In this document: positions 5,039 through 57,036 of the stretch, piece after piece
Position numbering within the stretch: position 1 is the first letter of the stretch
Layout of the letters: each line of letters begins with the position of its first letter
Source of the DNA: Eledone cirrhosa
Taxonomy: Eukaryota
DNA: 64,000 bases
Assembly (NCBI GenBank): GCA_964016885.1
Contig: OZ024749.1
Coordinates: 27,590,001 to 27,654,000 of the forward strand
Direction of reading: 5' to 3'
Program-made: the position numbers and the translations under genes
Notes under the pieces: model-generated
The model's database searches: none
What the model saw: only the letters and a program-made list of their open reading frames with translations
What the model was told of the DNA's origin: nothing

Positions 5039-5099
5039 AAGATTAATATTTAAACGCTACTTTGGTATTGAGTTCTCTTTTCTCTCAGTTGTCAGTCAA

Positions 5100-23333: not shown

Positions 23334-24174
23334 TTCATTTCATTTCATTTGAGTTTGAGTCCATGCTCAGGCCAAGTCGAAGACTCCAACCTCAGAGTCT
23401 GGTGTGGTTGCCAGGTTGGATTCTCTGTTTAATTTTGACATGTGTAGGAGCGAGTTTGAGTCAGTTTGTGCTCGTTGTGTATATCCTGGGAGATGGGGTT
23501 CAACTCTAATGGTGCTTAAGTATCTATCCAGCTGCAATTTGAATGATTCCACACTGCATCCCGATAGATTTCTGACATGTACCGGAATGGAGTTGAATAG
23601 TTGTGCCCCTCTAACCAACAGACTTGACTCTCGCAGGGTTTTTGCTGCCTGGCCAGCCCTTTTGTTGATTGGTGGTAGCTGGCAGCGCCTTCCGTGGCGC
23701 AGTGAGTGGTAGGTTTTGATACCAAAGTTTGGCACCTTTTGCTCTATCATTTTCCAAATGTATATAATTCGGTATTGCTCAAATCTTCTTTCTATTGAGT
23801 ACATCTTCAAGGTTCTGAGTCTTTGCCAATAGTCCAGGTCCCTCGTTTCTGAGAAGTATGAGGTAAAATTTCTTTGGAGCGATTCCATCTTAGATAGTTG
23901 GCCCTTTGTTGTTGGTGACCACAAATGAGAACAGTAGTCAATCCTCGGAAGTATCATACTGTTCCAGAGGGTTTTCATTGTTGAGGTATCTCTTGATTTG
24001 AAGGTGCGCAAGATCCACCCGCTGTACTTTCTTGCAGTAAGACAGACTGAGTCAAGGTGTTCTCTGAATTTTAAGCTGGTTCCCATGTGGATGCCTAAAT
24101 CTTTCACACACTGTTTTTCCATTATTTGTTGTCCTGATGGGTTTCTGTAGTTTGTTGTATTTTTCAGATCTTCT
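23334..24174 (-). mobile_element. 5'-truncated CR1/L2-group LINE (ORF2 C-terminal part, 23367-24122)
   Basis: KDLGI...GWILRTF...PRIDYCSHLWSP...LESLQRNFT-like...LFNSIP...FK.QLD.YL; (AAATG)n 3' tail; flanked by (TA)n on both sides. Confidence 0.88.
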
Positions 24175-24399: not shown

Positions 24400-24680
24400 A
24401 AATATATATATATATATATACATATATATTGTATATATACATATATATATACATATATATTGTATATATACATATATATATACATATATATTGTATATAT
24501 ACATATATATATACATATATATTGTATATATACATATATATATATATATATACATATATATTGTATATATATATATATACATATATATATATACATATAT
24601 ATTGTATATATACATATATATATATATATATACATATATATTGTATATATACATATATATATATATATATACATATATAT

Positions 24681-24715
<35 letters not shown>

Positions 24716-25163
24716 TGTATATATATATATACATATATATATACATATATATATACATATATATATACATATACATATATATACATATACATATACATAT
24801 TGTATATATATATATACATATATATATACATATACATATATATATACATATACATATATATATATATACATATATATATACATATATATATATACATATA
24901 TATACATATATATATATATACATATATATATACATATTGTATATATATATACATATTGTATATATATATATACATATATATATACATATTGTATATATAT
25001 ATATACATATATATATACATATTGTATATATATATATACATATATATATACATATTGTATATATATATATACATATATATATACATATTGTATATATATA
25101 TATACATATATATATACATATTGTATATATATATATACATATATATAACTTAATTGTTTATAC

Positions 25164-25194
<31 letters not shown>

Positions 25195-25257
25195 CATATA
25201 TATATACATATATATATATACATATATATATACATATATATATACATATATATATAC

Positions 25258-25290
<33 letters not shown>

Positions 25291-25580
25291 CATATATACA
25301 TATATATATACATATATATACATATATACATATATATATACATATTGTATATATATATATATATACATATATATACACATATATATATACATATACATAT
25401 ATATATACATATATATATATACATATATATACATATATATATATATACATATATACATACATATACATATATAAATATATACATATATATATATACATAT
25501 ATAAATATAAACATATATATATATATACATATATACATAAATATATACATATATAAATATATACATATATATATATATAC
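24400..25580. repeat. TA-derived compound satellite (TACA/TTG interruptions)
   Basis: Direct inspection. Confidence 0.97.
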
Positions 25581-25634
25581 ATAAAATGTTAAACAAATAA
25601 TGAACAAACAATTCCTTATATTAAACAAAAAAAG

Positions 25635-25789
25635 TTCACTATTTAACGATCGTTTCTAGGGCATATATGTGTTATAATTGGTATGCATATTTAACAGATC
25701 TATGTACAAAATTATACAAAATTATACAAATTATCAAGATTAAATATACATACCTAACTCATATATACGCCGTCTTCAGAAATAATGAA
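25635..25789 (-). ncRNA. Type I hammerhead ribozyme of PLE unit A
   Basis: Reverse complement of 36788-36942. Confidence 0.7.
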
Positions 25790-26557
25790 GTATATTTATT
25801 GATAATAACAACAATTCAAAATATCAGTTCAAAATTGACCAATGAAAACACAAAGGGTTAAAAAGCAGTTTGGTGTGTGTATATACATGTAAAACCCTAC
25901 ACACATTTTACAATAATGTGTGTATAATCTGTATGTGCATACTAAAAAGATGGATGCAAATAAAAAATTTCAAGGTTAATATCTCTGTAAGCTTAATGCG
26001 CTGATAAGATACGCAATGATACTTATGGAGTCAAGCATATAAATATATTTTTTTCATACTCACACATATCAGTATAATCACACATACATGTGCGTATATA
26101 TATAAAAATATACACATAACCACGAACACACAAACACACACACTCCCCCACTCACATTTATATATGTGGATATAAAATCATAAGCAAATAGAAATTAAGT
26201 CACTCACATAAACACACTGGTACACACATTTCAAGATCAAGATACAGAAATTAGGTGGGAGGGGGGGGGGTCAGTATTAGACTGTCAGACCAGACAACCT
26301 TAATATAAATGTATCTATAAATTATGAAAAATAAAAAAATAAAAACAATAAAATATAAATACATATAATATAATGTACATACGCATACAGATATACATAC
26401 ACATACATACATGTACGCGCACATAGAGATATCCATACATACATACATACACACATACCTATACTGTCATACACACACATACATTTACACGAACATACTC
26501 ATACACATATAAAAAGATATAAATACGGACACACACACGCGCAACACATACATACAT

Positions 26558-26614
<57 letters not shown>

Positions 26615-26727
26615 TATACACACACACGTAGACTCATATATATATACATACACATACATACATTTATACACAAACATATATATATATCCCACACTCATAC
26701 CACCATAAAAACACATACAAACATCCA

Positions 26728-26778
<51 letters not shown>

Positions 26779-26995
26779 ACATACACACACGTACACACAT
26801 ATGTATATATACATACATATATACACACATACACATATATAAATCCACACACACACATAAAATACAGACATGCACATATATATATATATATATATATATT
26901 TCATTACTCTTATATATACACATAGTATATATACATACACAACCTCACTTATACACATATACACAGAAGTTATATTACAATAATAATAAAGAATA

Positions 26996-27026
<31 letters not shown>

Positions 27027-27305
27027 CATATATATACACACATATAGACATATACATACACACACATACACATACATACATACATACACATACATACATA
27101 CACCTAAATATAAACATATATAAATACATACATACGAATAAAGACATATATTCACACATAGACACCTATATACACATATATATATATAAAATATATATAT
27201 ATATATATCTATATACACACACATACACATACATACACATATATATATATACATATATATACACATATACACACACGCACACACATACAGACACACATAC
27301 ACACT

Positions 27306-27340
<35 letters not shown>

Positions 27341-29059
27341 ATGTGAGTGTGCGCAAATACACATATATATATATACACACACACATACAAACACACACAA
27401 ACTTATACATATGCATACGCACACTCACACACACATATATCACATAGATACGAAGATAAACATATAAATAGAGAGACATATAAATATATACAGAACCCAT
27501 ATACACATACATACAAACACGCATATACATATATATACATATATACACACATATATATTCCTATATACAAGCATACACATACACACACATATATACATAT
27601 ACATACACATATACATATCACACATTCACATACACGTACATATATAATACATATATATACACATATATATACATATATATGTATGTACAATCATATATAC
27701 ACACTCAATCTTACATTCATATTTACATGCTCATATATGTATTTTTATATTTAGAAATAAATACCAAAAAAACTATATAGACACCTATCTACACATATAT
27801 TCATACATATACACTTACAAAAACAGATGATAATAGTATGGGGGAAAGGGGGGGTTTGGAGAAGGGGATCAAAGTAAATATATGTTTCAAGAAACATATA
27901 ATATTTTCCATATCTTAATTCAATGTATGTTCCTACATATTTTCAGTGCTAGGAAATACGAAATCTATGCATCACAAAATAAAAAAGTATATTATTAATC
28001 ATATGTCAACTAAACCAAAGATAGTCAACATATTGATTTCCAAGGTGTAAATTAGTTAGGTTTATAATATTTGAGGCAGAATTATGAAGTCAAACAGTAG
28101 TAGAATATTAATTACATTATAACTAAATTAAAGTTAATAACGTTATGGTATCAATATTAGGAGATGAATAGGGAAAAGAAACCCAAATAAAAATAAAATA
28201 AAGTATTACATCGGTAGTAGCATATAAATTATATGTTAACTAAGTTAAAAATTATATATTTATTTCAATAGTATATGTTAATTAGTATATGTTAATTAGG
28301 TATACAATACATAAAGCAGATATTGTATTTCATCAATAGCATAATATAATTATATGCAAATAAAAATCAAAATTAATACGCATACATATACATATACATA
28401 CACATACACATACATATACATATACATACACATATACATATATATATATACATATATATACACATACATACATATATAGTCACATAAATATACATACAGA
28501 TACACATATAACACACACATATACATATACATATAGATATACATATCTTTTCCAAAAAATTTGCACAGAATACATTAACTAGGTATATATCCAAGAACAC
28601 CTCCCATTCTATAATTACATGACATTCTGCAATTTGTCTGTACAATGATACTAATTTTAAGCAAATTAAAGTTAAAATTAAAGTTTTAGGTTGATTAAAG
28701 CTAAAACCAAATAATAAATATATTTCCAAAATGTATATTAATTAGGTCAATAATACTAAAAATTCTTTCTCCGTCATAGGATACATGATATTATTTTGTT
28801 ATATTTTATCTGTAAAAGAATTATAATAAAAAAAATTATTATAATAAAAGGTTAAACTAAATTAAAAAATTATAATAAAAGGTTAAAATAAGTTAAAATT
28901 AATCTATAAATTAAATTACTGAATATATATTAGTAATATTTAAAGGTTTTTCAAAATTAATGATTACATAAAATTTTCTCATCTGTAATAAAATATTAAT
29001 TAAATTAAATTTATAGGTTAACTAACATTTAAATTAAATTAAATTCTAGAATAATGTTA

Positions 29060-31437
29060 TTAATTAGGTTTATAATATTTAAATGTTTTTTTTAGTTTAT
29101 GATTACACGATATAATTAATTCCTGTCTTTTATTTAATAAGATATCCCTAGACTTCATTATTTCAAATAGTTCTTGGGAACATAATCTACATTCCTTTCT
29201 ATTATTTTGATAAGGGGTGGCTCTTTTGAGCACACTCCAGGTCAAATCATATTTTATATTTTTATTTTTATAACTATTGATTTTTTCTGCTAGAGATGTT
29301 GTATTAGCCAGTGCGGCATTTTTAAAGCTATGTTTGTGGGTATTATATCTTGTCTTAAAATTGTTAGAGGTAGCTCCTATATATGAGCAAATAGAATCTT
29401 TAGTTTTAACATTACATTTATAGACTATGTTGTTAACAAGACAATTCCCTTTTAATGGGCAGTTTGTTTTGTTTCTACAGTTACATCCTTTCGTTAATTC
29501 TGTATTTGAGGAGATATTATTGTTAATTTGATGTACTGGTGGTATACTTATAGTTTTCTTACATTTATATGCATTATATGCACTTATATTTTGTTTTATG
29601 TTATTTGTTGTAGAATATGAGAATTTAACTGTAGACCTATTTAAGATTTGATGGTATTTGTGGTTTGGCGGGAAGTTTTTCTCAAGGATATAAAAAAATT
29701 TTTTAGCAATATTATCCTTAACTTGTAAATTAAAAGGAGCATTATACCAAGTAACTCGTCTATTACGGTTTCTATGTTGTTTATTATTTTTATTATTTTT
29801 ATATGTTGTATCATGATTTTTACTAGGAGGAATAATGTTAATGATCTCACCACAACTATTTTTAGTTATATTTGTAGATTTAGGTGTTTTATCTTTTTTA
29901 TTAGGAGTTTTATTATTAATATTTATTATAGTCTTATGATGAGTAGTTTTTTGAGGGTTACTATACTTAATATTAAAAGATTTAGTATTTTGGGGTATAC
30001 TGTGGGTGGCATTTAGGTGTGTACTTTTCATTTGGTGTTTGTTGGTAATATTATGCTGTATGCTTTCAGTATTTTTAGTAGAAGGTATATACTCTAATCT
30101 ATTTTTGTGGCCACTTCTATCTAGAGCTTCATTATAAAAGGTCGCATTTTTATCAAATACATCTTGGTTAGAAGAAAGGTTAGAAATTCTAAGTGATATA
30201 TTATATGCAAGGTTTTTAAGGATAGATTTAGGGTGATTAGATTGTGAGTGTATGTAATGTAAGTTTTGGTTAGGTTTATGGTAAGGTTGGTATATACCCG
30301 TAGCTAAATCTAAAGTTATATCTAGGAAATTTACTACTTTACTTGTTTTTTCAAAAGTAATATTAAGATTATAATAGTCTTTAAGGAAAGTTCTAATATG
30401 CTTTTTGTTTTTTTCGATTTCTGAAAGGCTAAGGTTGTTAGAAAGAAGAAGACAGTCATCACGATATAAACCACCTTTGAGGTGGGGAAAAGAGGCATTT
30501 ATGTTGAAAAGGAGAAAGAGGCCCACAAGATCAGTAATTTGGGCAGAATCGCTTGAACCCATAGTAATATCAAAAAGATTACTATAAGTGTTTCTGGTCC
30601 AGTATTCATTCTGAAATTCAATAAGTGTTTGTCTAGCATGTGTAATAATGTTAATGTCATCCGAAGTTAAACTAGATCTATTTTTAGCAAATATTAATGC
30701 TTTGTTCAGGAGTATGGGTGATATAGAAGAATAATAATTATCTATATCAAACTGTAGGAAAGAAGCAGAAGATTTACACCTAATATTTTTAAACCAATTA
30801 ATTACCTGGGAGGTGTTTTCCCAGAGTGGTAAAATAACGTATTTTCTTATTTGTGGGATGACTCTATCTAAAATTTTTTTGCTAATTATTCCAATATCTG
30901 ATTTGGAGGGACATATAAGTCTAATAGAAGGATTAGAGTTAAAGTTAGATTTGTGATCTTTCAGGTTGAAGTGTGGACTTCTCAATGCCAAAGGTTCAGT
31001 TCTATCTTCAATATTTAGTTTTTTTACTATGTTGTGTGTTTTGTTGTTGATGTTGGTGAGTGACGCATTATTAGATTTTTTATAACTTTTTCTGAGTTCT
31101 TTATATATGAACTCATTATAATGTTCAATATCCATATGATACAAGTTACCAGTTTTGTCCGAGTGGACATGGATTTTTTTAGACTTTTTTAGGTCCAATA
31201 GGGTAGAATCAAGGTCCTTTTGAAAGACGGATTTATACTTTTTAAATTTTAGGTGTTTAATTAAATTAAAAAGGTCTTTCTCGAAGTCTTCAAGTAAAAA
31301 GTTGTGTGGTGGATTCTTGTAAGTGTTGAAATCATACATATATTTCCGATCTGCTTGTTTAGATTTCCTATCAAAGTGGTAGGCTCTCCATCTAACCCTT
31401 CTGATAAAATTATTAGTTTTCTGAATCATAAGGAGTA
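29060..31437 (-). CDS. PLE RT + GIY-YIG endonuclease ORF (unit A)
   Basis: QFDIDNYYSSI, ITMGSSDS, GLYRDD, NFLDITL; CNCRNKTNC linker; IVY...YIGAT...RYNTH; ends KTFKYYKPN*. Confidence 0.9.
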
Positions 31438-31447
31438 TGGATATCAT

Positions 31448-33523
31448 ATGGATATTGAACATTATAATGAGTTCATATATAAAGAACTCAGAAAAAGTTA
31501 TAAAAAATCTAATAATGCGTCACTCACCAACATCAACAACAAAACACACAACATAGTAAAAAAACTAAATATTGAAGATAGAACTGAACCTTTGGCATTG
31601 AGAAGTCCACACTTCAACCTGAAAGATCACAAATCTAACTTTAACTCTAATCCTTCTATTAGACTTATATGTCCCTCCAAATCAGATATTGGAATAATTA
31701 GCAAAAAAATTTTAGATAGAGTCATCCCACAAATAAGAAAATACGTTATTTTACCACTCTGGGAAAACACCTCCCAGGTAATTAATTGGTTTAAAAATAT
31801 TAGGTGTAAATCTTCTGCTTCTTTCCTACAGTTTGATATAGATAATTATTATTCTTCTATATCACCCATACTCCTGAACAAAGCATTAATATTTGCTAAA
31901 AATAGATCTAGTTTAACTTCGGATGACATTAACATTATTACACATGCTAGACAAACACTTATTGAATTTCAGAATGAATACTGGACCAGAAACACTTATA
32001 GTAATCTTTTTGATATTACTATGGGTTCAAGCGATTCTGCCCAAATTACTGATCTTGTGGGCCTCTTTCTCCTTTTCAACATAAATGCCTCTTTTCCCCA
32101 CCTCAAAGGTGGTTTATATCGTGATGACTGTCTTCTTCTTTCTAACAACCTTAGCCTTTCAGAAATCGAAAAAAACAAAAAGCATATTAGAACTTTCCTT
32201 AAAGACTATTATAATCTTAATATTACTTTTGAAAAAACAAGTAAAGTAGTAAATTTCCTAGATATAACTTTAGATTTAGCTACGGGTATATACCAACCTT
32301 ACCATAAACCTAACCAAAACTTACATTACATACACTCACAATCTAATCACCCTAAATCTATCCTTAAAAACCTTGCATATAATATATCACTTAGAATTTC
32401 TAACCTTTCTTCTAACCAAGATGTATTTGATAAAAATGCGACCTTTTATAATGAAGCTCTAGATAGAAGTGGCCACAAAAATAGATTAGAGTATATACCT
32501 TCTACTAAAAATACTGAAAGCATACAGCATAATATTACCAACAAACACCAAATGAAAAGTACACACCTAAATGCCACCCACAGTATACCCCAAAATACTA
32601 AATCTTTTAATATTAAGTATAGTAACCCTCAAAAAACTACTCATCATAAGACTATAATAAATATTAATAATAAAACTCCTAATAAAAAAGATAAAACACC
32701 TAAATCTACAAATATAACTAAAAATAGTTGTGGTGAGATCATTAACATTATTCCTCCTAGTAAAAATCATGATACAACATATAAAAATAATAAAAATAAT
32801 AAACAACATAGAAACCGTAATAGACGAGTTACTTGGTATAATGCTCCTTTTAATTTACAAGTTAAGGATAATATTGCTAAAAAATTTTTTTATATCCTTG
32901 AGAAAAACTTCCCGCCAAACCACAAATACCATCAAATCTTAAATAGGTCTACAGTTAAATTCTCATATTCTACAACAAATAACATAAAACAAAATATAAG
33001 TGCATATAATGCATATAAATGTAAGAAAACTATAAGTATACCACCAGTACATCAAATTAACAATAATATCTCCTCAAATACAGAATTAACGAAAGGATGT
33101 AACTGTAGAAACAAAACAAACTGCCCATTAAAAGGGAATTGTCTTGTTAACAACATAGTCTATAAATGTAATGTTAAAACTAAAGATTCTATTTGCTCAT
33201 ATATAGGAGCTACCTCTAACAATTTTAAGACAAGATATAATACCCACAAACATAGCTTTAAAAATGCCGCACTGGCTAATACAACATCTCTAGCAGAAAA
33301 AATCAATAGTTATAAAAATAAAAATATAAAATATGATTTGACCTGGAGTGTGCTCAAAAGAGCCACCCCTTATCAAAATAATAGAAAGGAATGTAGATTA
33401 TGTTCCCAAGAACTATTTGAAATAATGAAGTCTAGGGATATCTTATTAAATAAAAGACAGGAATTAATTATATCGTGTAATCATAAACTAAAAAAAACAT
33501 TTAAATATTATAAACCTAATTAA
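31448..33523 (+). CDS. PLE RT + GIY-YIG ORF, N-terminally truncated (unit B)
   Basis: Same protein from MDIEH onward; the ORF-track N-terminus (31304-31441) is antisense of unit A. Confidence 0.85.
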   Translation: MDIEHYNEFIYKELRKSYKKSNNASLTNINNKTHNIVKKLNIEDRTEPLALRSPHFNLKDHKSNFNSNPSIRLICPSKSDIGIISKKILDRVIPQIRKYVILPLWENTSQVINWFKNIRCKSSASFLQFDIDNYYSSISPILLNKALIFAKNRSSLTSDDINIITHARQTLIEFQNEYWTRNTYSNLFDITMGSSDSAQITDLVGLFLLFNINASFPHLKGGLYRDDCLLLSNNLSLSEIEKNKKHIRTFLKDYYNLNITFEKTSKVVNFLDITLDLATGIYQPYHKPNQNLHYIHSQSNHPKSILKNLAYNISLRISNLSSNQDVFDKNATFYNEALDRSGHKNRLEYIPSTKNTESIQHNITNKHQMKSTHLNATHSIPQNTKSFNIKYSNPQKTTHHKTIININNKTPNKKDKTPKSTNITKNSCGEIINIIPPSKNHDTTYKNNKNNKQHRNRNRRVTWYNAPFNLQVKDNIAKKFFYILEKNFPPNHKYHQILNRSTVKFSYSTTNNIKQNISAYNAYKCKKTISIPPVHQINNNISSNTELTKGCNCRNKTNCPLKGNCLVNNIVYKCNVKTKDSICSYIGATSNNFKTRYNTHKHSFKNAALANTTSLAEKINSYKNKNIKYDLTWSVLKRATPYQNNRKECRLCSQELFEIMKSRDILLNKRQELIISCNHKLKKTFKYYKPN

Positions 33524-35242
33524 TAACATTATTCTAGAATTTAATTTAATTTAAATGTTAGTTAACCTATAAATTTAATTTAATTAATATTTTATTACAG
33601 ATGAGAAAATTTTATGTAATCATTAATTTTGAAAAACCTTTAAATATTACTAATATATATTCAGTAATTTAATTTATAGATTAATTTTAACTTATTTTAA
33701 CCTTTTATTATAATTTTTTAATTTAGTTTAACCTTTTATTATAATAATTTTTTTTATTATAATTCTTTTACAGATAAAATATAACAAAATAATATCATGT
33801 ATCCTATGACGGAGAAAGAATTTTTAGTATTATTGACCTAATTAATATACATTTTGGAAATATATTTATTATTTGGTTTTAGCTTTAATCAACCTAAAAC
33901 TTTAATTTTAACTTTAATTTGCTTAAAATTAGTATCATTGTACAGACAAATTGCAGAATGTCATGTAATTATAGAATGGGAGGTGTTCTTGGATATATAC
34001 CTAGTTAATGTATTCTGTGCAAATTTTTTGGAAAAGATATGTATATCTATATGTATATGTATATGTGTGTGTTATATGTGTATCTGTATGTATATTTATG
34101 TGACTATATATGTATGTATGTGTATATATATGTATATATATATATGTATATGTGTATGTATATGTATATGTATGTGTATGTGTATGTATATGTATATGTA
34201 TGCGTATTAATTTTGATTTTTATTTGCATATAATTATATTATGCTATTGATGAAATACAATATCTGCTTTATGTATTGTATACCTAATTAACATATACTA
34301 ATTAACATATACTATTGAAATAAATATATAATTTTTAACTTAGTTAACATATAATTTATATGCTACTACCGATGTAATACTTTATTTTATTTTTATTTGG
34401 GTTTCTTTTCCCTATTCATCTCCTAATATTGATACCATAACGTTATTAACTTTAATTTAGTTATAATGTAATTAATATTCTACTACTGTTTGACTTCATA
34501 ATTCTGCCTCAAATATTATAAACCTAACTAATTTACACCTTGGAAATCAATATGTTGACTATCTTTGGTTTAGTTGACATATGATTAATAATATACTTTT
34601 TTATTTTGTGATGCATAGATTTCGTATTTCCTAGCACTGAAAATATGTAGGAACATACATTGAATTAAGATATGGAAAATATTATATGTTTCTTGAAACA
34701 TATATTTACTTTGATCCCCTTCTCCAAACCCCCCCTTTCCCCCATACTATTATCATCTGTTTTTGTAAGTGTATATGTATGAATATATGTGTAGATAGGT
34801 GTCTATATAGTTTTTTTGGTATTTATTTCTAAATATAAAAATACATATATGAGCATGTAAATATGAATGTAAGATTGAGTGTGTATATATGATTGTACAT
34901 ACATATATATGTATATATATGTGTATATATATGTATTATATATGTACGTGTATGTGAATGTGTGATATGTATATGTGTATGTATATGTATATATGTGTGT
35001 GTATGTGTATGCTTGTATATAGGAATATATATGTGTGTATATATGTATATATATGTATATGCGTGTTTGTATGTATGTGTATATGGGTTCTGTATATATT
35101 TATATGTCTCTCTATTTATATGTTTATCTTCGTATCTATGTGATATATGTGTGTGTGAGTGTGCGTATGCATATGTATAAGTTTGTGTGTGTTTGTATGT
35201 GTGTGTGTATATATATATATGTGTATTTGCGCACACTCACAT

Positions 35243-35277
<35 letters not shown>

Positions 35278-35550
35278 AGTGTGTATGTGTGTCTGTATGT
35301 GTGTGCGTGTGTGTATATGTGTATATATATGTATATATATATATGTGTATGTATGTGTATGTATATAGATATATATATATATATATTTTATATATATATA
35401 TGTGTATATAGGTGTCTATGTGTGAATATATGTCTTTATTCGTATGTATGTATTTATATATGTTTATATTTAGGTGTATGTATGTATGTGTATGTATGTA
35501 TGTATGTGTATGTGTGTGTATGTATATGTCTATATGTGTGTATATATATG

Positions 35551-35581
<31 letters not shown>

Positions 35582-35798
35582 TATTCTTTATTATTATTGT
35601 AATATAACTTATGTGTATATGTGTATAAGTGAGGTTGTGTATGTATATATACTATGTGTATATATAAGAGTAATGAAATATATATATATATATATATATA
35701 TGTGCATGTCTGTATTTTATGTGTGTGTGTGGATTTATATATGTGTATGTGTGTATATATGTATGTATATATACATATGTGTGTACGTGTGTGTATGT

Positions 35799-35849
<51 letters not shown>

Positions 35850-35962
35850 TGGATGTTTGTATGTGTTTTTATGGTGGTATGAGTGTGGGATATATATATA
35901 TGTTTGTGTATAAATGTATGTATGTGTATGTATATATATATGAGTCTACGTGTGTGTGTATA

Positions 35963-36019
<57 letters not shown>

Positions 36020-36787
36020 ATGTATGTATGTGTTGCGCGTGTGTGTGTCCGTATTTATATCTTTTTATATGTGTATGAGTATGTTCGTGTAAATGTATGT
36101 GTGTGTATGACAGTATAGGTATGTGTGTATGTATGTATGTATGGATATCTCTATGTGCGCGTACATGTATGTATGTGTATGTATATCTGTATGCGTATGT
36201 ACATTATATTATATGTATTTATATTTTATTGTTTTTATTTTTTTATTTTTCATAATTTATAGATACATTTATATTAAGGTTGTCTGGTCTGACAGTCTAA
36301 TACTGACCCCCCCCCCTCCCACCTAATTTCTGTATCTTGATCTTGAAATGTGTGTACCAGTGTGTTTATGTGAGTGACTTAATTTCTATTTGCTTATGAT
36401 TTTATATCCACATATATAAATGTGAGTGGGGGAGTGTGTGTGTTTGTGTGTTCGTGGTTATGTGTATATTTTTATATATATACGCACATGTATGTGTGAT
36501 TATACTGATATGTGTGAGTATGAAAAAAATATATTTATATGCTTGACTCCATAAGTATCATTGCGTATCTTATCAGCGCATTAAGCTTACAGAGATATTA
36601 ACCTTGAAATTTTTTATTTGCATCCATCTTTTTAGTATGCACATACAGATTATACACACATTATTGTAAAATGTGTGTAGGGTTTTACATGTATATACAC
36701 ACACCAAACTGCTTTTTAACCCTTTGTGTTTTCATTGGTCAATTTTGAACTGATATTTTGAATTGTTGTTATTATCAATAAATATAC

Positions 36788-36942
36788 TTCATTATTTCTG
36801 AAGACGGCGTATATATGAGTTAGGTATGTATATTTAATCTTGATAATTTGTATAATTTTGTATAATTTTGTACATAGATCTGTTAAATATGCATACCAAT
36901 TATAACACATATATGCCCTAGAAACGATCGTTAAATAGTGAA
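36788..36942 (+). ncRNA. Type I hammerhead ribozyme at the PLE B/C boundary (pseudo-LTR)
   Basis: Stem I UUCAUUAUUU/AAAUAGUGAA (10 bp); CUGAAGA 36798-36804; GAAA 36921-36924; palindromic stem III AACGAUCGUU; GUU triplet; long stem II. Confidence 0.72.
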
Positions 36943-37285
36943 CTTTTTTTGTTTAATATAAGGAATTGTTTGTTCATTATTTGTTTAACATTTTATCTTG
37001 ACTCTGTATACCATTTATCTTTCACCGAAATTGGATTTTCATTACATCTCTTATTTCCATGATATCCGGAATACATTGAGTTCTTCATACGGATTGGACA
37101 CTACCGTAAACTCTTGGTAGATTTATCTACATAATTTTGCTCCTATTTTCACGGAAATATTCGTATTTTTGTACTGTATGTGTGTATTAATTTTATATTT
37201 ATGTATAAACATATATATATGTATGATTTTGTAAACCCATATACATTTAGTTGAGCTCTTTCAATTGTCCATCATCCATATCACA

Positions 37286-39757
37286 ATGGAAAAACAATAT
37301 TTAGGAACCTCCTTAAAAAACATACCAATACCTTCTAAGGACGACTTCTTACTCCTTATGATTCAGAAAACTAATAATTTTATCAGAAGGGTTAGATGGA
37401 GAGCCTACCACTTTGATAGGAAATCTAAACAAGCAGATCGGAAATATATGTATGATTTCAACACTTACAAGAATCCACCACACAACTTTTTACTTGAAGA
37501 CTTCGAGAAAGACCTTTTTAATTTAATTAAACACCTAAAATTTAAAAAGTATAAATCCGTCTTTCAAAAGGACCTTGATTCTACCCTATTGGACCTAAAA
37601 AAGTCTAAAAAAATCCATGTCCACTCGGACAAAACTGGTAACTTGTATCATATGGATATTGAACATTATAATGAGTTCATATATAAAGAACTCAGAAAAA
37701 GTTATAAAAAATCTAATAATGCGTCACTCACCAACATCAACAACAAAACACACAACATAGTAAAAAAACTAAATATTGAAGATAGAACTGAACCTTTGGC
37801 ATTGAGAAGTCCACACTTCAACCTGAAAGATCACAAATCTAACTTTAACTCTAATCCTTCTATTAGACTTATATGTCCCTCCAAATCAGATATTGGAATA
37901 ATTAGCAAAAAAATTTTAGATAGAGTCATCCCACAAATAAGAAAATACGTTATTTTACCACTCTGGGAAAACACCTCCCAGGTAATTAATTGGTTTAAAA
38001 ATATTAGGTGTAAATCTTCTGCTTCTTTCCTACAGTTTGATATAGATAATTATTATTCTTCTATATCACCCATACTCCTGAACAAAGCATTAATATTTGC
38101 TAAAAATAGATCTAGTTTAACTTCGGATGACATTAACATTATTACACATGCTAGACAAACACTTATTGAATTTCAGAATGAATACTGGACCAGAAACACT
38201 TATAGTAATCTTTTTGATATTACTATGGGTTCAAGCGATTCTGCCCAAATTACTGATCTTGTGGGCCTCTTTCTCCTTTTCAACATAAATGCCTCTTTTC
38301 CCCACCTCAAAGGTGGTTTATATCGTGATGACTGTCTTCTTCTTTCTAACAACCTTAGCCTTTCAGAAATCGAAAAAAACAAAAAGCATATTAGAACTTT
38401 CCTTAAAGACTATTATAATCTTAATATTACTTTTGAAAAAACAAGTAAAGTAGTAAATTTCCTAGATATAACTTTAGATTTAGCTACGGGTATATACCAA
38501 CCTTACCATAAACCTAACCAAAACTTACATTACATACACTCACAATCTAATCACCCTAAATCTATCCTTAAAAACCTTGCATATAATATATCACTTAGAA
38601 TTTCTAACCTTTCTTCTAACCAAGATGTATTTGATAAAAATGCGACCTTTTATAATGAAGCTCTAGATAGAAGTGGCCACAAAAATAGATTAGAGTATAT
38701 ACCTTCTACTAAAAATACTGAAAGCATACAGCATAATATTACCAACAAACACCAAATGAAAAGTACACACCTAAATGCCACCCACAGTATACCCCAAAAT
38801 ACTAAATCTTTTAATATTAAGTATAGTAACCCTCAAAAAACTACTCATCATAAGACTATAATAAATATTAATAATAAAACTCCTAATAAAAAAGATAAAA
38901 CACCTAAATCTACAAATATAACTAAAAATAGTTGTGGTGAGATCATTAACATTATTCCTCCTAGTAAAAATCATGATACAACATATAAAAATAATAAAAA
39001 TAATAAACAACATAGAAACCGTAATAGACGAGTTACTTGGTATAATGCTCCTTTTAATTTACAAGTTAAGGATAATATTGCTAAAAAATTTTTTTATATC
39101 CTTGAGAAAAACTTCCCGCCAAACCACAAATACCATCAAATCTTAAATAGGTCTACAGTTAAATTCTCATATTCTACAACAAATAACATAAAACAAAATA
39201 TAAGTGCATATAATGCATATAAATGTAAGAAAACTATAAGTATACCACCAGTACATCAAATTAACAATAATATCTCCTCAAATACAGAATTAACGAAAGG
39301 ATGTAACTGTAGAAACAAAACAAACTGCCCATTAAAAGGGAATTGTCTTGTTAACAACATAGTCTATAAATGTAATGTTAAAACTAAAGATTCTATTTGC
39401 TCATATATAGGAGCTACCTCTAACAATTTTAAGACAAGATATAATACCCACAAACATAGCTTTAAAAATGCCGCACTGGCTAATACAACATCTCTAGCAG
39501 AAAAAATCAATAGTTATAAAAATAAAAATATAAAATATGATTTGACCTGGAGTGTGCTCAAAAGAGCCACCCCTTATCAAAATAATAGAAAGGAATGTAG
39601 ATTATGTTCCCAAGAACTATTTGAAATAATGAAGTCTAGGGATATCTTATTAAATAAAAGACAGGAATTAATTATATCGTGTAATCATAAACTAAAAAAA
39701 AATTTAAATATTATAAACCTAATTAATAACATTATTCTAGAATTTAATTTAATTTAA
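37286..39757 (+). CDS. Full-length PLE polyprotein: RT + C-terminal GIY-YIG (Hydra-clade-like)
   Basis: ATG 37286 MEKQYLGTSLKNIPIPS; SDKTGNLY; RT motifs incl. YRDD; CxCx5C linker; VY..YIG, CRLC, KRQELIISCNH; 1-nt deletion near 39700 alters the last residues relative to A/B. Confidence 0.92.
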   Translation: MEKQYLGTSLKNIPIPSKDDFLLLMIQKTNNFIRRVRWRAYHFDRKSKQADRKYMYDFNTYKNPPHNFLLEDFEKDLFNLIKHLKFKKYKSVFQKDLDSTLLDLKKSKKIHVHSDKTGNLYHMDIEHYNEFIYKELRKSYKKSNNASLTNINNKTHNIVKKLNIEDRTEPLALRSPHFNLKDHKSNFNSNPSIRLICPSKSDIGIISKKILDRVIPQIRKYVILPLWENTSQVINWFKNIRCKSSASFLQFDIDNYYSSISPILLNKALIFAKNRSSLTSDDINIITHARQTLIEFQNEYWTRNTYSNLFDITMGSSDSAQITDLVGLFLLFNINASFPHLKGGLYRDDCLLLSNNLSLSEIEKNKKHIRTFLKDYYNLNITFEKTSKVVNFLDITLDLATGIYQPYHKPNQNLHYIHSQSNHPKSILKNLAYNISLRISNLSSNQDVFDKNATFYNEALDRSGHKNRLEYIPSTKNTESIQHNITNKHQMKSTHLNATHSIPQNTKSFNIKYSNPQKTTHHKTIININNKTPNKKDKTPKSTNITKNSCGEIINIIPPSKNHDTTYKNNKNNKQHRNRNRRVTWYNAPFNLQVKDNIAKKFFYILEKNFPPNHKYHQILNRSTVKFSYSTTNNIKQNISAYNAYKCKKTISIPPVHQINNNISSNTELTKGCNCRNKTNCPLKGNCLVNNIVYKCNVKTKDSICSYIGATSNNFKTRYNTHKHSFKNAALANTTSLAEKINSYKNKNIKYDLTWSVLKRATPYQNNRKECRLCSQELFEIMKSRDILLNKRQELIISCNHKLKKNLNIINLINNIILEFNLI

Positions 39758-41445
39758 ATGTTAGTTAACCTATAAATTTAATTTAATTAATATTTTATTA
39801 CAGATGAGAAAATTTTATGTAATCATTAATTTTGAAAAACCTTTAAATATTACTAATATATATTCAGTAATTTAATTTATAGATTAATTTTAACTTATTT
39901 TAACCTTTTATTATAATTTTTTAATTTAGTTTAACCTTTTATTATAATAATTTTTTTTATTATAATTCTTTTACAGATAAAATATAACAAAATAATATCA
40001 TGTATCCTATGACGGAGAAAGAATTTTTAGTATTATTGACCTAATTAATATACATTTTGGAAATATATTTATTATTTGGTTTTAGCTTTAATCAACCTAA
40101 AACTTTAATTTTAACTTTAATTTGCTTAAAATTAGTATCATTGTACAGACAAATTGCAGAATGTCATGTAATTATAGAATGGGAGGTGTTCTTGGATATA
40201 TACCTAGTTAATGTATTCTGTGCAAATTTTTTGGAAAAGATATGTATATCTATATGTATATGTATATGTGTGTGTTATATGTGTATCTGTATGTATATTT
40301 ATGTGACTATATATGTATGTATGTGTATATATATGTATATATATATATGTATATGTGTATGTATATGTATATGTATGTGTATGTGTATGTATATGTATAT
40401 GTATGCGTATTAATTTTGATTTTTATTTGCATATAATTATATTATGCTATTGATGAAATACAATATCTGCTTTATGTATTGTATACCTAATTAACATATA
40501 CTAATTAACATATACTATTGAAATAAATATATAATTTTTAACTTAGTTAACATATAATTTATATGCTACTACCGATGTAATACTTTATTTTATTTTTATT
40601 TGGGTTTCTTTTCCCTATTCATCTCCTAATATTGATACCATAACGTTATTAACTTTAATTTAGTTATAATGTAATTAATATTCTACTACTGTTTGACTTC
40701 ATAATTCTGCCTCAAATATTATAAACCTAACTAATTTACACCTTGGAAATCAATATGTTGACTATCTTTGGTTTAGTTGACATATGATTAATAATATACT
40801 TTTTTATTTTGTGATGCATAGATTTCGTATTTCCTAGCACTGAAAATATGTAGGAACATACATTGAATTAAGATATGGAAAATATTATATGTTTCTTGAA
40901 ACATATATTTACTTTGATCCCCTTCTCCAAACCCCCCCTTTCCCCCATACTATTATCATCTGTTTTTGTAAGTGTATATGTATGAATATATGTGTAGATA
41001 GGTGTCTATATAGTTTTTTTGGTATTTATTTCTAAATATAAAAATACATATATGAGCATGTAAATATGAATGTAAGATTGAGTGTGTATATATGATTGTA
41101 CATACATATATATGTATATATATGTGTATATATATGTATTATATATGTACGTGTATGTGAATGTGTGATATGTATATGTGTATGTATATGTATATATGTG
41201 TGTGTATGTGTATGCTTGTATATAGGAATATATATGTGTGTATATATGTATATATATGTATATGCGTGTTTGTATGTATGTGTATATGGGTTCTGTATAT
41301 ATTTATATGTCTCTCTATTTATATGTTTATCTTCGTATCTATGTGATATATGTGTGTGTGAGTGTGCGTATGCATATGTATAAGTTTGTGTGTGTTTGTA
41401 TGTGTGTGTGTATATATATATATGTGTATTTGCGCACACTCACAT

Positions 41446-41480
<35 letters not shown>

Positions 41481-41759
41481 AGTGTGTATGTGTGTCTGTA
41501 TGTGTGTGCGTGTGTGTATATGTGTATATATATGTATATATATATATGTGTATGTATGTGTATGTGTGTGTATATAGATATATATATATATATATTTTAT
41601 ATATATATATGTGTATATAGGTGTCTATGTGTGAATATATGTCTTTATTCGTATGTATGTATTTATATATGTTTATATTTAGGTGTATGTATGTATGTGT
41701 ATGTATGTATGTATGTGTATGTGTGTGTATGTATATGTCTATATGTGTGTATATATATG

Positions 41760-41790
<31 letters not shown>

Positions 41791-42007
41791 TATTCTTTAT
41801 TATTATTGTAATATAACTTATGTGTATATGTGTATAAGTGAGGTTGTGTATGTATATATACTATGTGTATATATAAGAGTAATGAAATATATATATATAT
41901 ATATATATATGTGCATGTCTGTATTTTATGTGTGTGTGTGGATTTATATATGTGTATGTGTGTATATATGTATGTATATATACATATGTGTGTACGTGTG
42001 TGTATGT

Positions 42008-42056
<49 letters not shown>

Positions 42057-42169
42057 TGGATGTTTGTATGTGTTTTTATGGTGGTATGAGTGTGGGATAT
42101 ATATATATGTTTGTGTATAAATGTATGTATGTGTATGTATATATATATGAGTCTACGTGTGTGTGTATA

Positions 42170-42222
<53 letters not shown>

Positions 42223-42992
42223 ATGTATGTATGTGTTGCGCGTGTGTGTGTCCGTATTTATATCTTTTTATATGTGTATGAGTATGTTCGTGTAAATGTA
42301 TGTGTGTGTATGACAGTATAGGTATGTGTGTATGTATGTATGTATGGATATCTCTATGTGCGCGTACATGTATGTATGTGTATGTATATCTGTATGCGTA
42401 TGTACATTATATTATATGTATTTATATTTTATTGTTTTTATTTTTTTATTTTTCATAATTTATAGATACATTTATATTAAGGTTGTCTGGTCTGACAGTC
42501 TAATACTGACCCCCCCCCCCCTCCCACCTAATTTCTGTATCTTGATCTTGAAATGTGTGTACCAGTGTGTTTATGTGAGTGACTTAATTTCTATTTGCTT
42601 ATGATTTTATATCCACATATATAAATGTGAGTGGGGGAGTGTGTGTGTTTGTGTGTTCGTGGTTATGTGTATATTTTTATATATATACGCACATGTATGT
42701 GTGATTATACTGATATGTGTGAGTATGAAAAAAATATATTTATATGCTTGACTCCATAAGTATCATTGCGTATCTTATCAGCGCATTAAGCTTACAGAGA
42801 TATTAACCTTGAAATTTTTTATTTGCATCCATCTTTTTAGTATGCACATACAGATTATACACACATTATTGTAAAATGTGTGTAGGGTTTTACATGTATA
42901 TACACACACCAAACTGCTTTTTAACCCTTTGTGTTTTCATTGGTCAATTTTGAACTGATATTTTGAATTGTTGTTATTATCAATAAATATAC

Positions 42993-43147
42993 TTCATTAT
43001 TTCTGAAGACGGCGTATATATGAGTTAGGTATGTATATTTAATCTTGATAATTTGTATAATTTTGTATAATTTTGTACATAGATCTGTTAAATATGCATA
43101 CCAATTATAACACATATATGCCCTAGAAACGATCGTTAAATAGTGAA
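42993..43147 (+). ncRNA. Type I hammerhead ribozyme of PLE unit C
   Basis: Identical to 36788-36942. Confidence 0.72.
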
Positions 43148-43338
43148 CTTTTTTTGTTTAATATAAGGAATTGTTTGTTCATTATTTGTTTAACATTTTA
43201 TCTTGACTCTGTATACCATTTATCTTTCACCGAAATTGGATTTTCATTACATCTCTTATTTCCATGATATCCGGAATACATTGAGTTCTTCATACGGATT
43301 GGACACTACCGTAAACTCTTGGTAGATTTATCTACATA

Positions 43339-43925
43339 TATATACATATATACATAAATATATACATATATATATATACATATATATTGTATATATATAT
43401 ATATACATAAATATATACATATATATATATACATATATACATAAATATATACATATATATATATACATATATATTGTATATATATATATATATATATACA
43501 CATATATATATTGTATATATATATATATATATACATATATATTGTATATATATATATATATACACATATATATTGTATATATATATATATATACATATAT
43601 ATTGTATATATATATATATACATATATATATTGTATATATATATATATACATATATATATTGTATATATATATATATACATATATATTGTATATATATAT
43701 ATATACATATATATTGTATATATATATATATACATATATATTGTATATATATATATATACATATATATATTGTATATATATATATATACATATATATATT
43801 GTATATATATATATATATACACACATATATATTGTATATATATATATATTGTATATATATATATATACATATATATTGTATATATATATATATTGTATAT
43901 ATATATATATTGTATATATATATAT
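43339..43925. repeat. TA-derived compound satellite
   Basis: Direct inspection. Confidence 0.97.
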
Positions 43926-45609
43926 CACAGGTAGGAAGAGAAGGTGTTTGAGTCAAATCCAGGGAACGGGGCCCGAGGATAGGAAGAGGAAATGGCTAGA
44001 CCATTTTAGGACCCTACTAGGAGAGCCACCCTCCACAGCCCAGAGCACTGGGGAGATCAGGCGGCTGTTTGAGGAACTGGATGTTGAGACAGAGCCCTTC
44101 ACCAGAGAGGAGTTTCAGAGAGCCAAGAAGAGGATCAAGGAGGGCAAGGCTCATGGAGAAGATGGAGTGGCATCAGAGGTGATGAAGAGGTGTGATTTTG
44201 ATGATATCATCCTAGGTTTCTGTAACGGGGCACTGGAGAAAGGAGTTGTCCCGAATCAGTGGAGGATCAGTAACATCGTCCCAGTGCCAAAGAAGGGAGA
44301 TCTCTCTAACACCAACAACTACAGGGGGATATCACTGACGTCACTTGTGGCAAAGACCCTCAACAGGATGATTCTTAACAAGATCCAGCCTGAGATAGAG
44401 AAGAAGCTCAGGGACAACCAGAACGGCTTTAGAGAGGGTAGATCAACCACCAGTCACATCCTGATGCTGAGAAGGATATTAAAGGGAGCTAGAGCAAAGT
44501 GCCTTCCTGCAGTCATGGTTTTCATTGACTTTAGGAAGGCCTTTGATTCTGTGGACCGTTACTGCCTGATGAAGATCTTACATGCTTATGGAATCCCCAA
44601 GAAAATAGTGGACCTGATATCACTGCTCTACACCAACACCAAAGCCCAAGTCATTACACCTGATGGGATGACAGAGTTCTTTGAGATACTGGCTGGAGTG
44701 CTCCAGGGAGATACATTGGCTCCCTACCTTTTTATCATCGTAGTGGACTATTGTATGCGCTTTGCACTGGAGAAACACCAGGACTCTGGCTTTACTGTAG
44801 CACCGGCTCAGAGCAGGAGAGTTAGGGCGAAAAAGGTATCGGATGCTGAATTTGCCGACGACATAGTTTTGGTGACAAATACAGTGAAGGAGGCAGAGGA
44901 TTTGATGCGGGAGGTTGAGACTGTGTCGATGAGTGTGGGGCTGAGGCTGAATGAGACTAAAACAAAATATCTGGTAGAGAATGTTGAGAAGCCAGAGGGG
45001 ATCACTAATGTAGGTGGGAAGCCGCTAGAATTGGTTGAGGGCTTCCTGTATTTGGGAGCAAAGATTGGGAATACGGAAGATGATGTGGTCGAGAGGAAGA
45101 GCAAAGCCTGGGCAGTGTGCCACAGCTTGAGATCGGTGTGGAAGCCGGACCTTAGTAGAGACCTGAAAATCCGCCTCTTCATTGCTGTAGTGGAGTCTGT
45201 GCTGCTGTATCGGTCTGGGACTTGGACACTGACCAAGAAACTCACTCAGATGGTGGATGGGTGCTACACGAGAATGCTGAGGATGGCTCTGAACATTAAT
45301 CAGTATACACTGAGGATGAAAAACTCAGAGCTGTATGGGAGCATCCCAAAAGTCAACTCAAAAGTGACACAGAGGAGACTGAGGTTAGCTGGACATGCTC
45401 ACCGACATCCAGAGTTGATATTGCACTCAGTGCTCCTTTGGGAGCCCCTACATGGACACACTAGAAGAGGAAGACCAAGGTTAACATATGTTGATGCCCT
45501 AAGGACAGACACTAGTCTGTTGGAGACGCAGGACATGGCAGCGATAATGAGGCATAGAGACCGCTGGAGAGAACTCATCCATCGATCTCGGGAATTTTAC
45601 TCGCCTTAG

Positions 45610-54440: not shown

Positions 54441-55640
54441 ACATTATTAAGGGTATAGGTGGGATACAGAAGCAGAACCTGACCATTACAATGATGATGA
54501 TAATAATAAGAGTAAGAATAATAATGGTTTCTAATTTAAGCACAAGGCCAGCAATTTCTGGTGGGGAGAGGAAAGTCGATAATATCGACCTCCCCCACCA
54601 AACAACAATAAAAACAACAATAATAAAATAATAATGAATATGAGAATATTGACAATAATAATAATAATAATGATGACCACAATGAAAACATAATAATAAT
54701 GACAGTGATGATGATGATGATAATGATTTCTTTATTAACCACAAAGGGTTTACATCAAGAAAACATTATGATGGCACAGGATGAAAACAGTGTGTGTATG
54801 TGTCGGTGTGTGGGTTTTGCATGTAAACAAATTTTAACAATGTTAAAAGGGAAACTGATGATAATAATAATAATAATGATGATGATGATAATGATGATAA
54901 AGCAAAAACAAAGAGACAGTTTGCTAAATGTTGGTTAAAAACATAAAAAGTAGAATTAAGCTAAATATATCAACAAGTGTCCATGTATTTAAAGACAAGA
55001 TCCACTCTAATCTCTATTGTCTATATTGTCTAAATTATTTCAATTGACTAATCTTATTGGAGTTATCTCCCTTGATTGTTTTTTTCTTCTTTTTCCATTT
55101 TAAAACACTGCCATCCTCTACCTAGATAGAGTTTTTATCTACTAATTGTGTGGATAACCTCAACTAATCAACGTAGTATTACAACTACACTATAATATAT
55201 TTACATATCCATAGGTTGGGGCCTCTGCCAGTGAAACATTGCTTCAAAAACATTAAAAAAGGGCCTCATGATGAGTATGAATCCCTTCATGGGGTCCTGA
55301 CTTGTAAGGCTAACACTTGCTTTAGCAAGAAAAGATAAAAAATATATTGGCTCTAACATGCTGGCTGCAACTAGAAAACTTTCTCTCTTATCCACACATA
55401 GATATATGAATGTTGAGGGATGTGTGAGTGAAATCTTGGATGAGATTACACAGAAAGTGGAGGAGAGTGAGAGCGTGAGTGTTACTTTATCACCAACAAT
55501 CTCCCCTCTTCTCTCTTATCCACACATAGATATATGAATGTTGAGAGATGTGTGAGTAAAACCTTGGATGGGACTACATAAGAAAGTGGATGAGGGGAGA
55601 GGTCAATGAGAGTGAGAGTGTGAGTATGAGTGTTACTTAC

Positions 55641-55779
55641 TTTATCACCAACAATCTCCCCTAGTTTTTCGTAGATTTCATTAAAACCAGCCTTCAGTGA
55701 CTCATGGTAGTCTTTCTGTTCTGTCTCAATTAGTTTGGCATTCAGATCTAATGCCTCACTGCAGATATGGATAAAGTTC
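55641..55779 (-). CDS. DOCK9: DOCK9/10/11 exon (end of DHR-2)
   Basis: NFIHICSEALDLNAKLIETEQKDYHESLKAGFNEIYEKLGEIVGDK; CAG/GTAAGT; phases consistent. Confidence 0.9.
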
Positions 55780-55789
55780 CTGTAATGAG

Positions 55790-56352
55790 AGAGTGGAGGG
55801 TAGTTAGAGACAGTGTCGAGTGGGGGGTGGTTAGAGACAGTGTCGAGTGGAGGGTGGTTAGTGGAGTGGAGGGTAGTTAGAGAGAGTGTCGAGTGGAGGG
55901 TGGTTAGAGACAATGTCGAGTGGAGGGTAGTTAGAGACAGTGTCGAGTGGGGGGTGGTTAGTGGAGTGGAGGGTAGTTAGAGAGAGTGTCGAGTGGAGGG
56001 TGGTTAGAGACAATGTCGAGTGGAGGGTAGTTAGAGGACAGTGTCGAGTGGAGGGTAGTTAGAGGACAGTGTCGAGTAGAGGGTGGTTAGTGGAGTGAAG
56101 GGTAGTTAGAGAGAGTGTCGAGTGGAGGGTAGTTAGAGACAGTGTCAAGTGGAGGGTGGTTAGTAGAGTGGAGGGTAGTTAGAGGACAGTGTCGAGTGGA
56201 GGGTGGTTAGTGGAGTGGAGGGCGGTTAGTGGAGTGGAGGGTAGTTAGAGACAGTGTTGAGTGGAGGGTATCTAGAGACAGTGTTGAGTGGAGGGTGGTT
56301 AGAGACAGTATTGAATGGAGGGTGGTTAGAGATAGTGTTGAGTGGAGGGTGG
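55790..56352. repeat. G-rich ~17/29-bp minisatellite (GAGTGGAGGGT(A/G)GTTAG...)
   Basis: More than 20 copies abutting the exon acceptor. Confidence 0.9.
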
Positions 56353-56561
56353 TTGGTTTGAGATAAGTGACTAAGGGAAGAAGGCAAATGAAAAGGGAAA
56401 AAAGAGAAATAAGAAAAGAAGAGGGAGATGAGGAAATGAGTAGCAGAAAGAGAGGAGGTAGAGATGTTGACTTACCTGAGGAGGGTGAGGGGGTGTAAGA
56501 GAAAGAGATGTGGACTTACTTGAAGAGGGAGAGAAGGAGGTGTAGTAGATGTCGACTGACT

Positions 56562-56762
56562 GAACCCTTTAGCATTTACATTACTATTATATTTTCATGG
56601 TAAAGGCTTTACCTCACATAATATGGAATCTACGAAATTTTGATATTTATTTTGAGAACAATACCTTAACGTCAGTATGAGGGGTCGGTTATGGCTGGTT
56701 TGAACAGAAAGAGGTGAGAGGATTCTGGCCGGATATGGCCGATTTAAATGCTAAAGAGTTAA
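56562..56762. mobile_element. piggyBac-like MITE remnant
   Basis: AACCCTTTAGCATTTA ... TAAATGCTAAAGAGTTAA inverted ends. Confidence 0.5.
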
Positions 56763-56880
56763 GGAAGGAGAAGGAGGGGGAGGAAGAGAGGGAAAGAAGT
56801 AATAGTAGTGGTGGTGGTAGTGGTAGTAGTGGTGGTGGTGGTGGTGGTAGTAGTGGTGGTGGTAGTAGATGTTGACTTAC

Positions 56881-56981: not shown

Positions 56982-57036
56982 CTGCAGAGAGACAGTAGAA
57001 AAGTTGGGGACATAGAAACCATCAGACATTGTGCTG

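Follow-up and report, generated by a model that had tools for sequence, protein, structure and literature searches.

How does a mobile element come to stand in an array of three almost identical units, one inverted and two in tandem, within a simple (TA)n repeat, and what does the build of the array say about the way in which the element is copied? The question is raised by a stretch of 64,000 nt of the Eledone cirrhosa genome (assembly GCA_964016885.1, contig OZ024749.1, positions 27,590,001 to 27,654,000 of the forward strand; hereafter the window), in which units A (inverted), B and C of a Penelope-like element (PLE) span 17,756 bp (2.86 units of 6205 bp, the period being 43201-36996), as determined by self-BLAST and pairwise alignment of the window. 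PLEs are telomerase's closest mobile relatives. Unit coordinates used below are window positions minus 37131, with C as the frame, and window positions of all features are collected in Table 1. We consider the array to be probably one insertion, in which two reverse transcriptases (RTs) primed at two fixed sites of one RNA into cut (TA)n.

An earlier note on this DNA had described three near-identical units in inverted and tandem order, with a substitution near 26966 and a few length changes, and both self-BLAST and alignment agree with it. The units are 99.7-99.9% identical and differ by that single substitution, in A at 26966, and by five indels, four of them private to C (one base fewer at ~39702 and repeat-length changes of AT, TATA and CC) and one, a 6-nt change, private to B. 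The blocks of the note stood, but its border between B and C at 36996/36997 did not, as B and C form one uninterrupted run with a natural border at 37131/37132. Its open frames were borne out in part: those of A and B are 5'-truncated, and that of C is shifted just past the CxH motif. The 4-nt insert between A and B is locally templated. A check for a target-site duplication gave a match of 9-12 nt at the array flanks, which is uninformative within a TA repeat.

The reading of two priming sites is carried by the outer ends of the arms. Throughout the family these lie at unit 6070 (short end) or at 6205-6207 (long end), with a few bases' scatter, and are joined to (TA)n. Loci were sampled rather than every copy scored, as an ORF-selected set (open reading frame, ORF), a ribozyme-selected set and the first 100 matches to a sequence pattern on C1, with a few loci common to more than one sample. 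Unlike ends were present in all 23 two-armed insertions of the ORF-selected set that had both ends visible (34 insertions in total, the others being 2 cut off, 8 one-armed and 1 at a contig end), in 7/7 new pairs at ribozyme-selected loci, and in 34/34 pairs among the C1 matches plus 11/11 more with a tiny partner arm. The palindromic mini-copies described below had unlike ends in 14/15 cases, the remaining one being unreadable, and no pair with two like ends was found among all samples scored. Arm junctions showed overlaps of 0-7 nt or short inserts, often locally templated. Two counts weigh against this reading: one arm only was present in 8/34 ORF-selected insertions, and 18/29 unpaired C1 matches were without a partner within the fetched stretch. 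A bulged hairpin is predicted shortly past each end, both with the same closing pattern, the one at the short end not being significant (z -1.1; in L265, z -0.1).

Units as alike as these could also be artefactual, a single unit having been multiplied by assembly or fold-back. We give this explanation hardly any credence: the A/B junction is asymmetric and holds an insert, the outer ends obey the 135-nt rule of the family, 22 other loci are built alike, the window is free of N, and the same landmarks recur in raw short reads of a relative. In three sequencing runs of that related organism the long end was found on (TA)n in 603-774 reads each, with 108 reads of the short end (one run), 118 loose ends at unit 5865 (one run) and a strand-switch joint at 5865, and these landmarks are therefore not products of this assembly. 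No read of the A/B junction was found in a search that covered only runs of relatives ~95% alike. The array is real and a typical insertion of its family, while the locus itself is ordinary and non-intact; its number of tandem units is possibly off by one.

Short arms share a second landmark, a family-wide 5' stop at unit 5865. Stops at 5863-5868 were seen in 28/100 C1 matches, 15 of them exactly at 5865, and palindromic junctions at 5865 numbered at least 782 genome-wide, against 0 in the control. The resulting palindromic mini-copies are 545 bp long and have 0-1 differences between their arms in 12/15 cases. A non-templated G precedes 5865 in 5/15 arms; a count by eye gave this G for 13 of the initial 50 palindromic junctions, 7 further ones being ambiguous. 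Reverse transcription of a cap leaves an extra G. Penelope has been described as having an internal promoter (PMC2377424). Because of the extra G and this promoter, unit 5865 is likely to be a capped transcription start. Mini-elements of this kind would be annotated as miniature inverted-repeat transposable elements, but they are two run-off complementary DNAs (cDNAs) of the repeat region.

Palindromic junctions as common as those at 5865 could instead suggest that inverted arms are made by fold-back self-priming on an antisense template, as was suggested for Adineta vaga Penelope (PMC3846280). This we regard as very improbable, as the arms of long insertions begin at unrelated points (unit 219 and 515 in the window) with short overlaps or inserts between them, as the palindromes at 5865 have the variable extra bases expected of two run-off cDNAs, and as fold-back gives no reason for unlike ends.

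Variants within insertions point to one template for both arms. Among 110 insertion-private variants covered by at least two units, 94 were present in all units, 15 in one and 1 in part; of the 94 shared variants, 75 span both arms and 47 span tandem units. The window array has six private variants, present in every unit that covers them, which bears out the single-event origin proposed earlier. Divergence between loci is 0.10-1.44% (median 0.64%), and substitutions within insertions are rare. Arm 0 of C7b (cut off and misaligned) and, from the within-insertion counts, a separate second insertion at C21 were left out, and arm 0 of C4c was misaligned in the variant-polarisation test. One insertion, C1269 (L009-L010), carries ten private A>G changes within 92 nt (unit 5317-5408) in both arms, which is likely ADAR-edited RNA written into DNA, or else an edited unsampled source.

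Long arms, which wrap past one unit, pass the 5865 site differently. The stop was taken in 28/82 arrivals on the first pass and in 0/28 on later passes (Fisher p 9e-5), with the first-pass sample picked by position and the later-pass sample by ORF identity. Wrapped arms skip 5865 and variants are shared, and the template therefore had no 5' end at 5865 and passed through a one-unit bottleneck. The simplest reading of the long arms would be a circle closed by the ribozyme. At ORF-selected loci, 12 wrapped arms end in unit 5869-6205 on their last pass, above the expectation for a length of 340 nt; these stops may reflect collision with the other priming site.

Dual priming could also be combined with a linear template, the long arms coming from multi-unit read-through RNA started at a host or upstream promoter, or from repeated template jumps among the RNAs of one source unit, with the hammerhead idle. 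For the related system Poseidon_Ac (PAc), cleavage was dispensable in vitro and a multi-copy mRNA was proposed (PMC11167929), and arm ends in our family are unenriched at the predicted cut. A derived variant of C4b at unit 6107 is also in favour of linear copying and counts against a monomer circle, which leaves it unexplained because the variant is present in 2/4 units, namely the inner one of each arm. Linear copying would, however, keep the differences between source units, yet most private variants are in all units; no 5' end is common to two long arms, no later pass stops at 5865, and arms of at least 2 wraps are rare as sources (3/59). We therefore hold a linear template to be unlikely, though it deserves to be weighed. 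A more specific version, prompted by the window, C4b and C10b, had the short-end arm copied from the last unit but one of a linear multimer; it was rejected, as the distinguishing substitutions, once polarised, proved private to one unit except for C4b 6107.

Exchange and conversion act readily on direct and inverted repeats, and the array could owe its units to unequal exchange after insertion and their identity to gene conversion between repeats. This would account for identity within loci and also for the C4b variant, but it leaves unlike ends, junction microhomologies, templated inserts and the failure of wrapped arms ever to start at 5865 unexplained, and homogeneity is just as strong in the 545-bp mini-copies. 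We consider such an origin improbable.

Closure of a circle would depend on the candidate type I hammerhead ribozyme, with a full core, found in all three units. Its fold was matched by 0/200 shuffles (z -5.3), and in 13 subfamily sequences 95% of cells are paired vs 24-58% when slid, with 13 one-sided pair changes and 1 two-sided; this comparison is compatible with a hammerhead fold. Several observations speak against a ribozyme that acts in replication. The single two-sided pair is weak covariation, with 450/500 shuffles as high, the first pair of stem II is C-A, and the young subfamily has U at the cut site. An Rfam scan gave no hammerhead and only microsatellite matches to microRNA models. 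Genome-wide, no footprint of ribozyme cutting was found, as 4 arms start at the predicted cut vs 3 at a neighbouring control, and ribozyme cleavage was dispensable in the in vitro study cited above. Arms at 6007-6008 were considered as a cleavage footprint and rejected (three in fetched loci, two of them on microhomology). In sister subfamilies (L244, L248, L255, L265, L271) the base at the cut is A. The role of the ribozyme in PLEs has been called a mystery (PMC7761336), and its function, like the mechanism of tandem and inverted PLE insertion, is given as an open question in PMC11167929. On balance, we rate the formation of long arms via a hammerhead-closed circle as about evenly poised.

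The favoured sequence of events would begin with a capped transcript started at 5865. The endonuclease would cleave both target strands, one target 3' end priming at 6070 and the other at 6205, and the two cDNAs would halt at unrelated points and join head to head via microhomology or short templated inserts. A capped linear RNA would yield the 545-bp palindromic mini-copies, and for arms that exceed one unit, B+C among them, the template would be a monomer traversed repeatedly, most probably a circle that is sealed once the hammerhead has cut. The fullest form of this reading is that an autonomous coding element replicates via a 6.2-kb ribozyme-closed circle, with a protein dimer priming at two hairpin-marked sites, one per strand, so that multi-unit cDNA is made both ways and capped uncut RNA gives only palindromic mini-elements; this is conceivable but, in our estimate, falls somewhat short of probable. 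If true, this whole scheme would be the integration mechanism of Penelope, readable from genomes. Since young copies number in the thousands, intact ORFs are many and the coordinates of start, cut and priming sites are exact, dual priming and a circular template are each directly testable.

Parts of this build are already in print. Endonuclease-bearing (EN+) PLEs are known as partial tandems with an inverted 5'-truncated copy and a one-sided tail of 30-40 bp (PMC8557442, PMC3846280, PMC2377424), and the head-to-head inverted arm, tandem units, one-end tail and internal promoter at the repeat start are shared with the present family; in those papers the tail is optional or often one-sided, whereas here unlike ends are paired without exception and arms extend to 2.8 units. 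For PAc, published work in vitro describes two internal RT start sites, cutting of both strands and a protein predicted to dimerise (PMC11167929), with which dual priming agrees. In PAc, too, the start sites lie downstream of the hammerhead with the tail between them, and the target is AT-rich. It differs in belonging to another clade, in start sites that lie in the ORF 30-40 nt apart, in the linear template proposed for it and in showing no strand preference in vitro, and a pairing of one end of each kind is unreported there. Animal non-LTR (long terminal repeat) retrozymes (PMC7761336; bioRxiv 10.64898/2026.07.22.740005) likewise consist of tandem units that all contain a type I hammerhead, and circular RNA was shown or proposed for them; they are thought to be PLE-mobilised. 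Their units are non-coding and 150-300 bp long, in contrast to the 6.2-kb autonomous coding unit here, which is not a retrozyme by that measure and for which the circle is inferred only. Our literature search, in which few subscription papers were covered, found no publication on an autonomous PLE that states strict unlike-end pairing, copying from a monomer or a stop at the cap site.

Table 1. Window positions of the array, its landmarks and its coding features.
Feature	Position	Strand	Basis or remark
Left portion of interrupted (TA)n-rich target	24402..25580		sequence
Unit A, inverted arm (unit 219-6070)	25581..31437	-	outer end is the short 3' site on (TA)n
Insert of 4 nt, head-to-head A/B junction	31438..31441		together with its flanks copies 9 nt found shortly inside B
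Unit B, inner, 5'-truncated (unit 515-6205)	31442..37131	+	alignment
Unit C, whole period (unit 1-6205)	37132..43336	+	outer end is the long 3' site on (TA)n
Right portion of interrupted (TA)n-rich target	43337..43925		sequence
Tail of 135 nt between short and long 3' ends	43202..43336	+	on C end, missing from A end
Bulged hairpin (predicted, weak)	37000..37082	+	4 nt past short end; z -1.1
Bulged hairpin (predicted)	37139..37256	+	6-8 nt past long end; z -3.0
Type I hammerhead fold in C (predicted)	42993..43147	+	motif search and folding
Hammerhead parts in C	stem I 42993-43002/43138-43147; core 43003-43009; GAAA 43126-43129	+	stem III palindromic
Predicted cut in C hammerhead	after 43137	+	fold; stem II is 116 nt
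Identical hammerhead fold in B	36788..36942	+	same sequence
Identical hammerhead fold in A	25635..25789	-	same sequence
Family-wide 5' stop of short arms, unit 5865	42996 (C), 36791 (B)	+	arm-end counts, reads
RT + GIY-YIG ORF of C, 823 aa	37286..39757	+	frame shifted past CxH; translation, motif search
Motifs of C ORF	RWR 37394, DKT 37628, YRDD 38321, CxCx5C 39302, YIG 39404, CxxC 39596, CxH 39680	+	
N/K-rich linker in C ORF	aa 477-579	+	disordered in AlphaFold model
ORF of A, open, lacking ~21 N-terminal codons	29060..31437	-	translation
ORF of B, open, lacking ~120 N-terminal codons	31442..33523	+	translation
3' UTR (untranslated region), ~3.3 kb, ~one third purine-pyrimidine microsatellite	39728..43002	+	sequence comparison

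The encoded protein places the element among PLEs of the Hydra type, as the earlier note had proposed, and all the motifs named there were found. A complete standard ORF is present in 0/3 window units, other copies encoding 813 aa vs 823 aa in C. Pfam found nothing in the element ORF, nor in two homologues; the AlphaFold model (mean predicted local distance difference test, pLDDT, of 81) had telomerase RTs as its best fold matches. The N-terminus has no Cys before DKT and no GxK[FY]; it carries RWR at aa 37, where most homologues have RWK, and DKT (aa 115) replaces DKG. There is no insertion-in-fingers domain (IFD), the distance from motif A to B being 64 aa (65 in Hydra-1_Obim, counted by eye). 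The endonuclease has the half-motifs VYK...YIG, with R, H, E and N in the homologue alignment; its CCHH motif is absent, with no CxxC between the half-motifs, and its two Cys nine residues apart are unconserved as a pair. CxCx5C (aa 673), CxxC (aa 771) and CxH (aa 799) are conserved in aligned homologues, of which 79 were found and 19 aligned, the Hydra motifs being conserved in the latter. Penelope/Poseidon, Neptune and Nematis, with a CCHH endonuclease and DKG, do not match, nor do Naiad and Chlamys, which have an N-terminal endonuclease, CxC, DKA and IFD (PMC8557442), whereas the endonuclease here is C-terminal and the motif DKT. Assignment to the Hydra type is supported by motifs rather than by a tree with named references. 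With the Hydra clade (Craig et al. 2021, PMC8557442) the element shares the single RT + GIY-YIG ORF, RW[K/R], DKT, CxCx5C and lack of CCHH, the terminal CxxC and CxH, a type I hammerhead near the 3' end, (TA)n targets and a fixed 3' end. The sole octopus family among the 27 listed there, Hydra-1_Obim of Octopus bimaculoides, is a different family from this element when compared by eye.

The unit is unusually large, as first noted, and twice the size of the listed Hydra families. These measure 1080-3045 bp and the clade is described as mostly short, below 3 kb (PMC8557442), a tendency rather than a criterion, which the 6205-bp unit exceeds, while PLEs are generally 4-6 kb (PMC6431247). Further differences from the listed families are the 3.3-kb 3' UTR, the disordered N/K-rich insert of 100 aa, the 135-nt tail, and a hammerhead of which stem II alone is 116 nt vs 80-100 nt for whole listed motifs, flanks included (PMC8557442). 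From the stop codon to the ribozyme core the UTR measures 3275 nt, 32% of it alternating purine-pyrimidine repeat, while sister subfamilies have UTRs of 0.7-1.3 kb: the core lies within 1.5 kb of the C-terminus in 6/30 loci, with UTRs of 702-739, 1081 and ~1290 nt, and the longer of these gain microsatellite and duplicated blocks. Judged from these sequence comparisons, the 6.2-kb unit reflects growth of the UTR from 0.7 to 3.3 kb via microsatellite and local duplication, with no second gene, the direction being taken as short to long because other Hydra families have short UTRs. A second gene or captured host DNA in the UTR was considered and rejected, as its coding frames are microsatellite read-through only and sister UTRs share homologous stretches. 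A Hydra-type element has thus doubled in size through UTR growth yet stayed active.

That the family is young and active, as also claimed before, is supported by its copies. At least 41 full-ORF matches at 99-100% were found (40 of 3595 candidates scored, in a genome of 3.0 Gb), 38/40 other full ORFs encode the same 813-aa protein, and ORF variants comprise 52 synonymous vs 37 non-synonymous changes. A 28-mer of the 3' region has 1271 exact matches genome-wide, and a degenerate C-terminal pattern 2489, sister subfamilies included. Relatives of the family are present in sequencing runs of several other organisms. The 17.8-kb array had been regarded as exceptional, but inverted plus tandem is the usual long form of the family; such arrays are frequent at ORF-bearing loci, where they attain ~23 kb (20-23 kb at C10b, C4b and C3a), although wrapped arms are rare in the positional sample (3/100 matches internal). 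Taken as a whole, the earlier interpretation is partly supported; it missed the ribozyme, the paired ends, the stop site and the homogeneity of units, which are the more telling features.

Two other insertions have unusual structures. At C4:201.70 Mb (L049) the 5' flank of a one-armed insertion consists of target DNA duplicated in perfect inverted orientation about a TA tract. At C1:273.65-273.67 Mb (L193-L194) a three-unit arm passes internally from unit 272 directly to 5991, so that one of its units has lost its start codon and the two priming sites.

In the window, the TA-rich microsatellite near the array has received several elements. Between the right flank of the array and a 5.3-kb TA-rich tract lies a 5'-truncated RT of a long interspersed nuclear element (LINE) with an open frame (43926-45609, + strand; Pfam RVT_1, E 6e-33), which we take to be RTE-like. 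Other LINEs have left decayed pieces at 5206-6103, 9974-10363 and 23367-24170, one of which contains a PHD finger. A short coding stretch at ~6480-6600 (+) presumably resembles a protein O-fucosyltransferase exon, for which Pfam gave no support, and two exons of a DOCK-family gene (DHR-2 lobe C) lie on the minus strand at 55485-57371.

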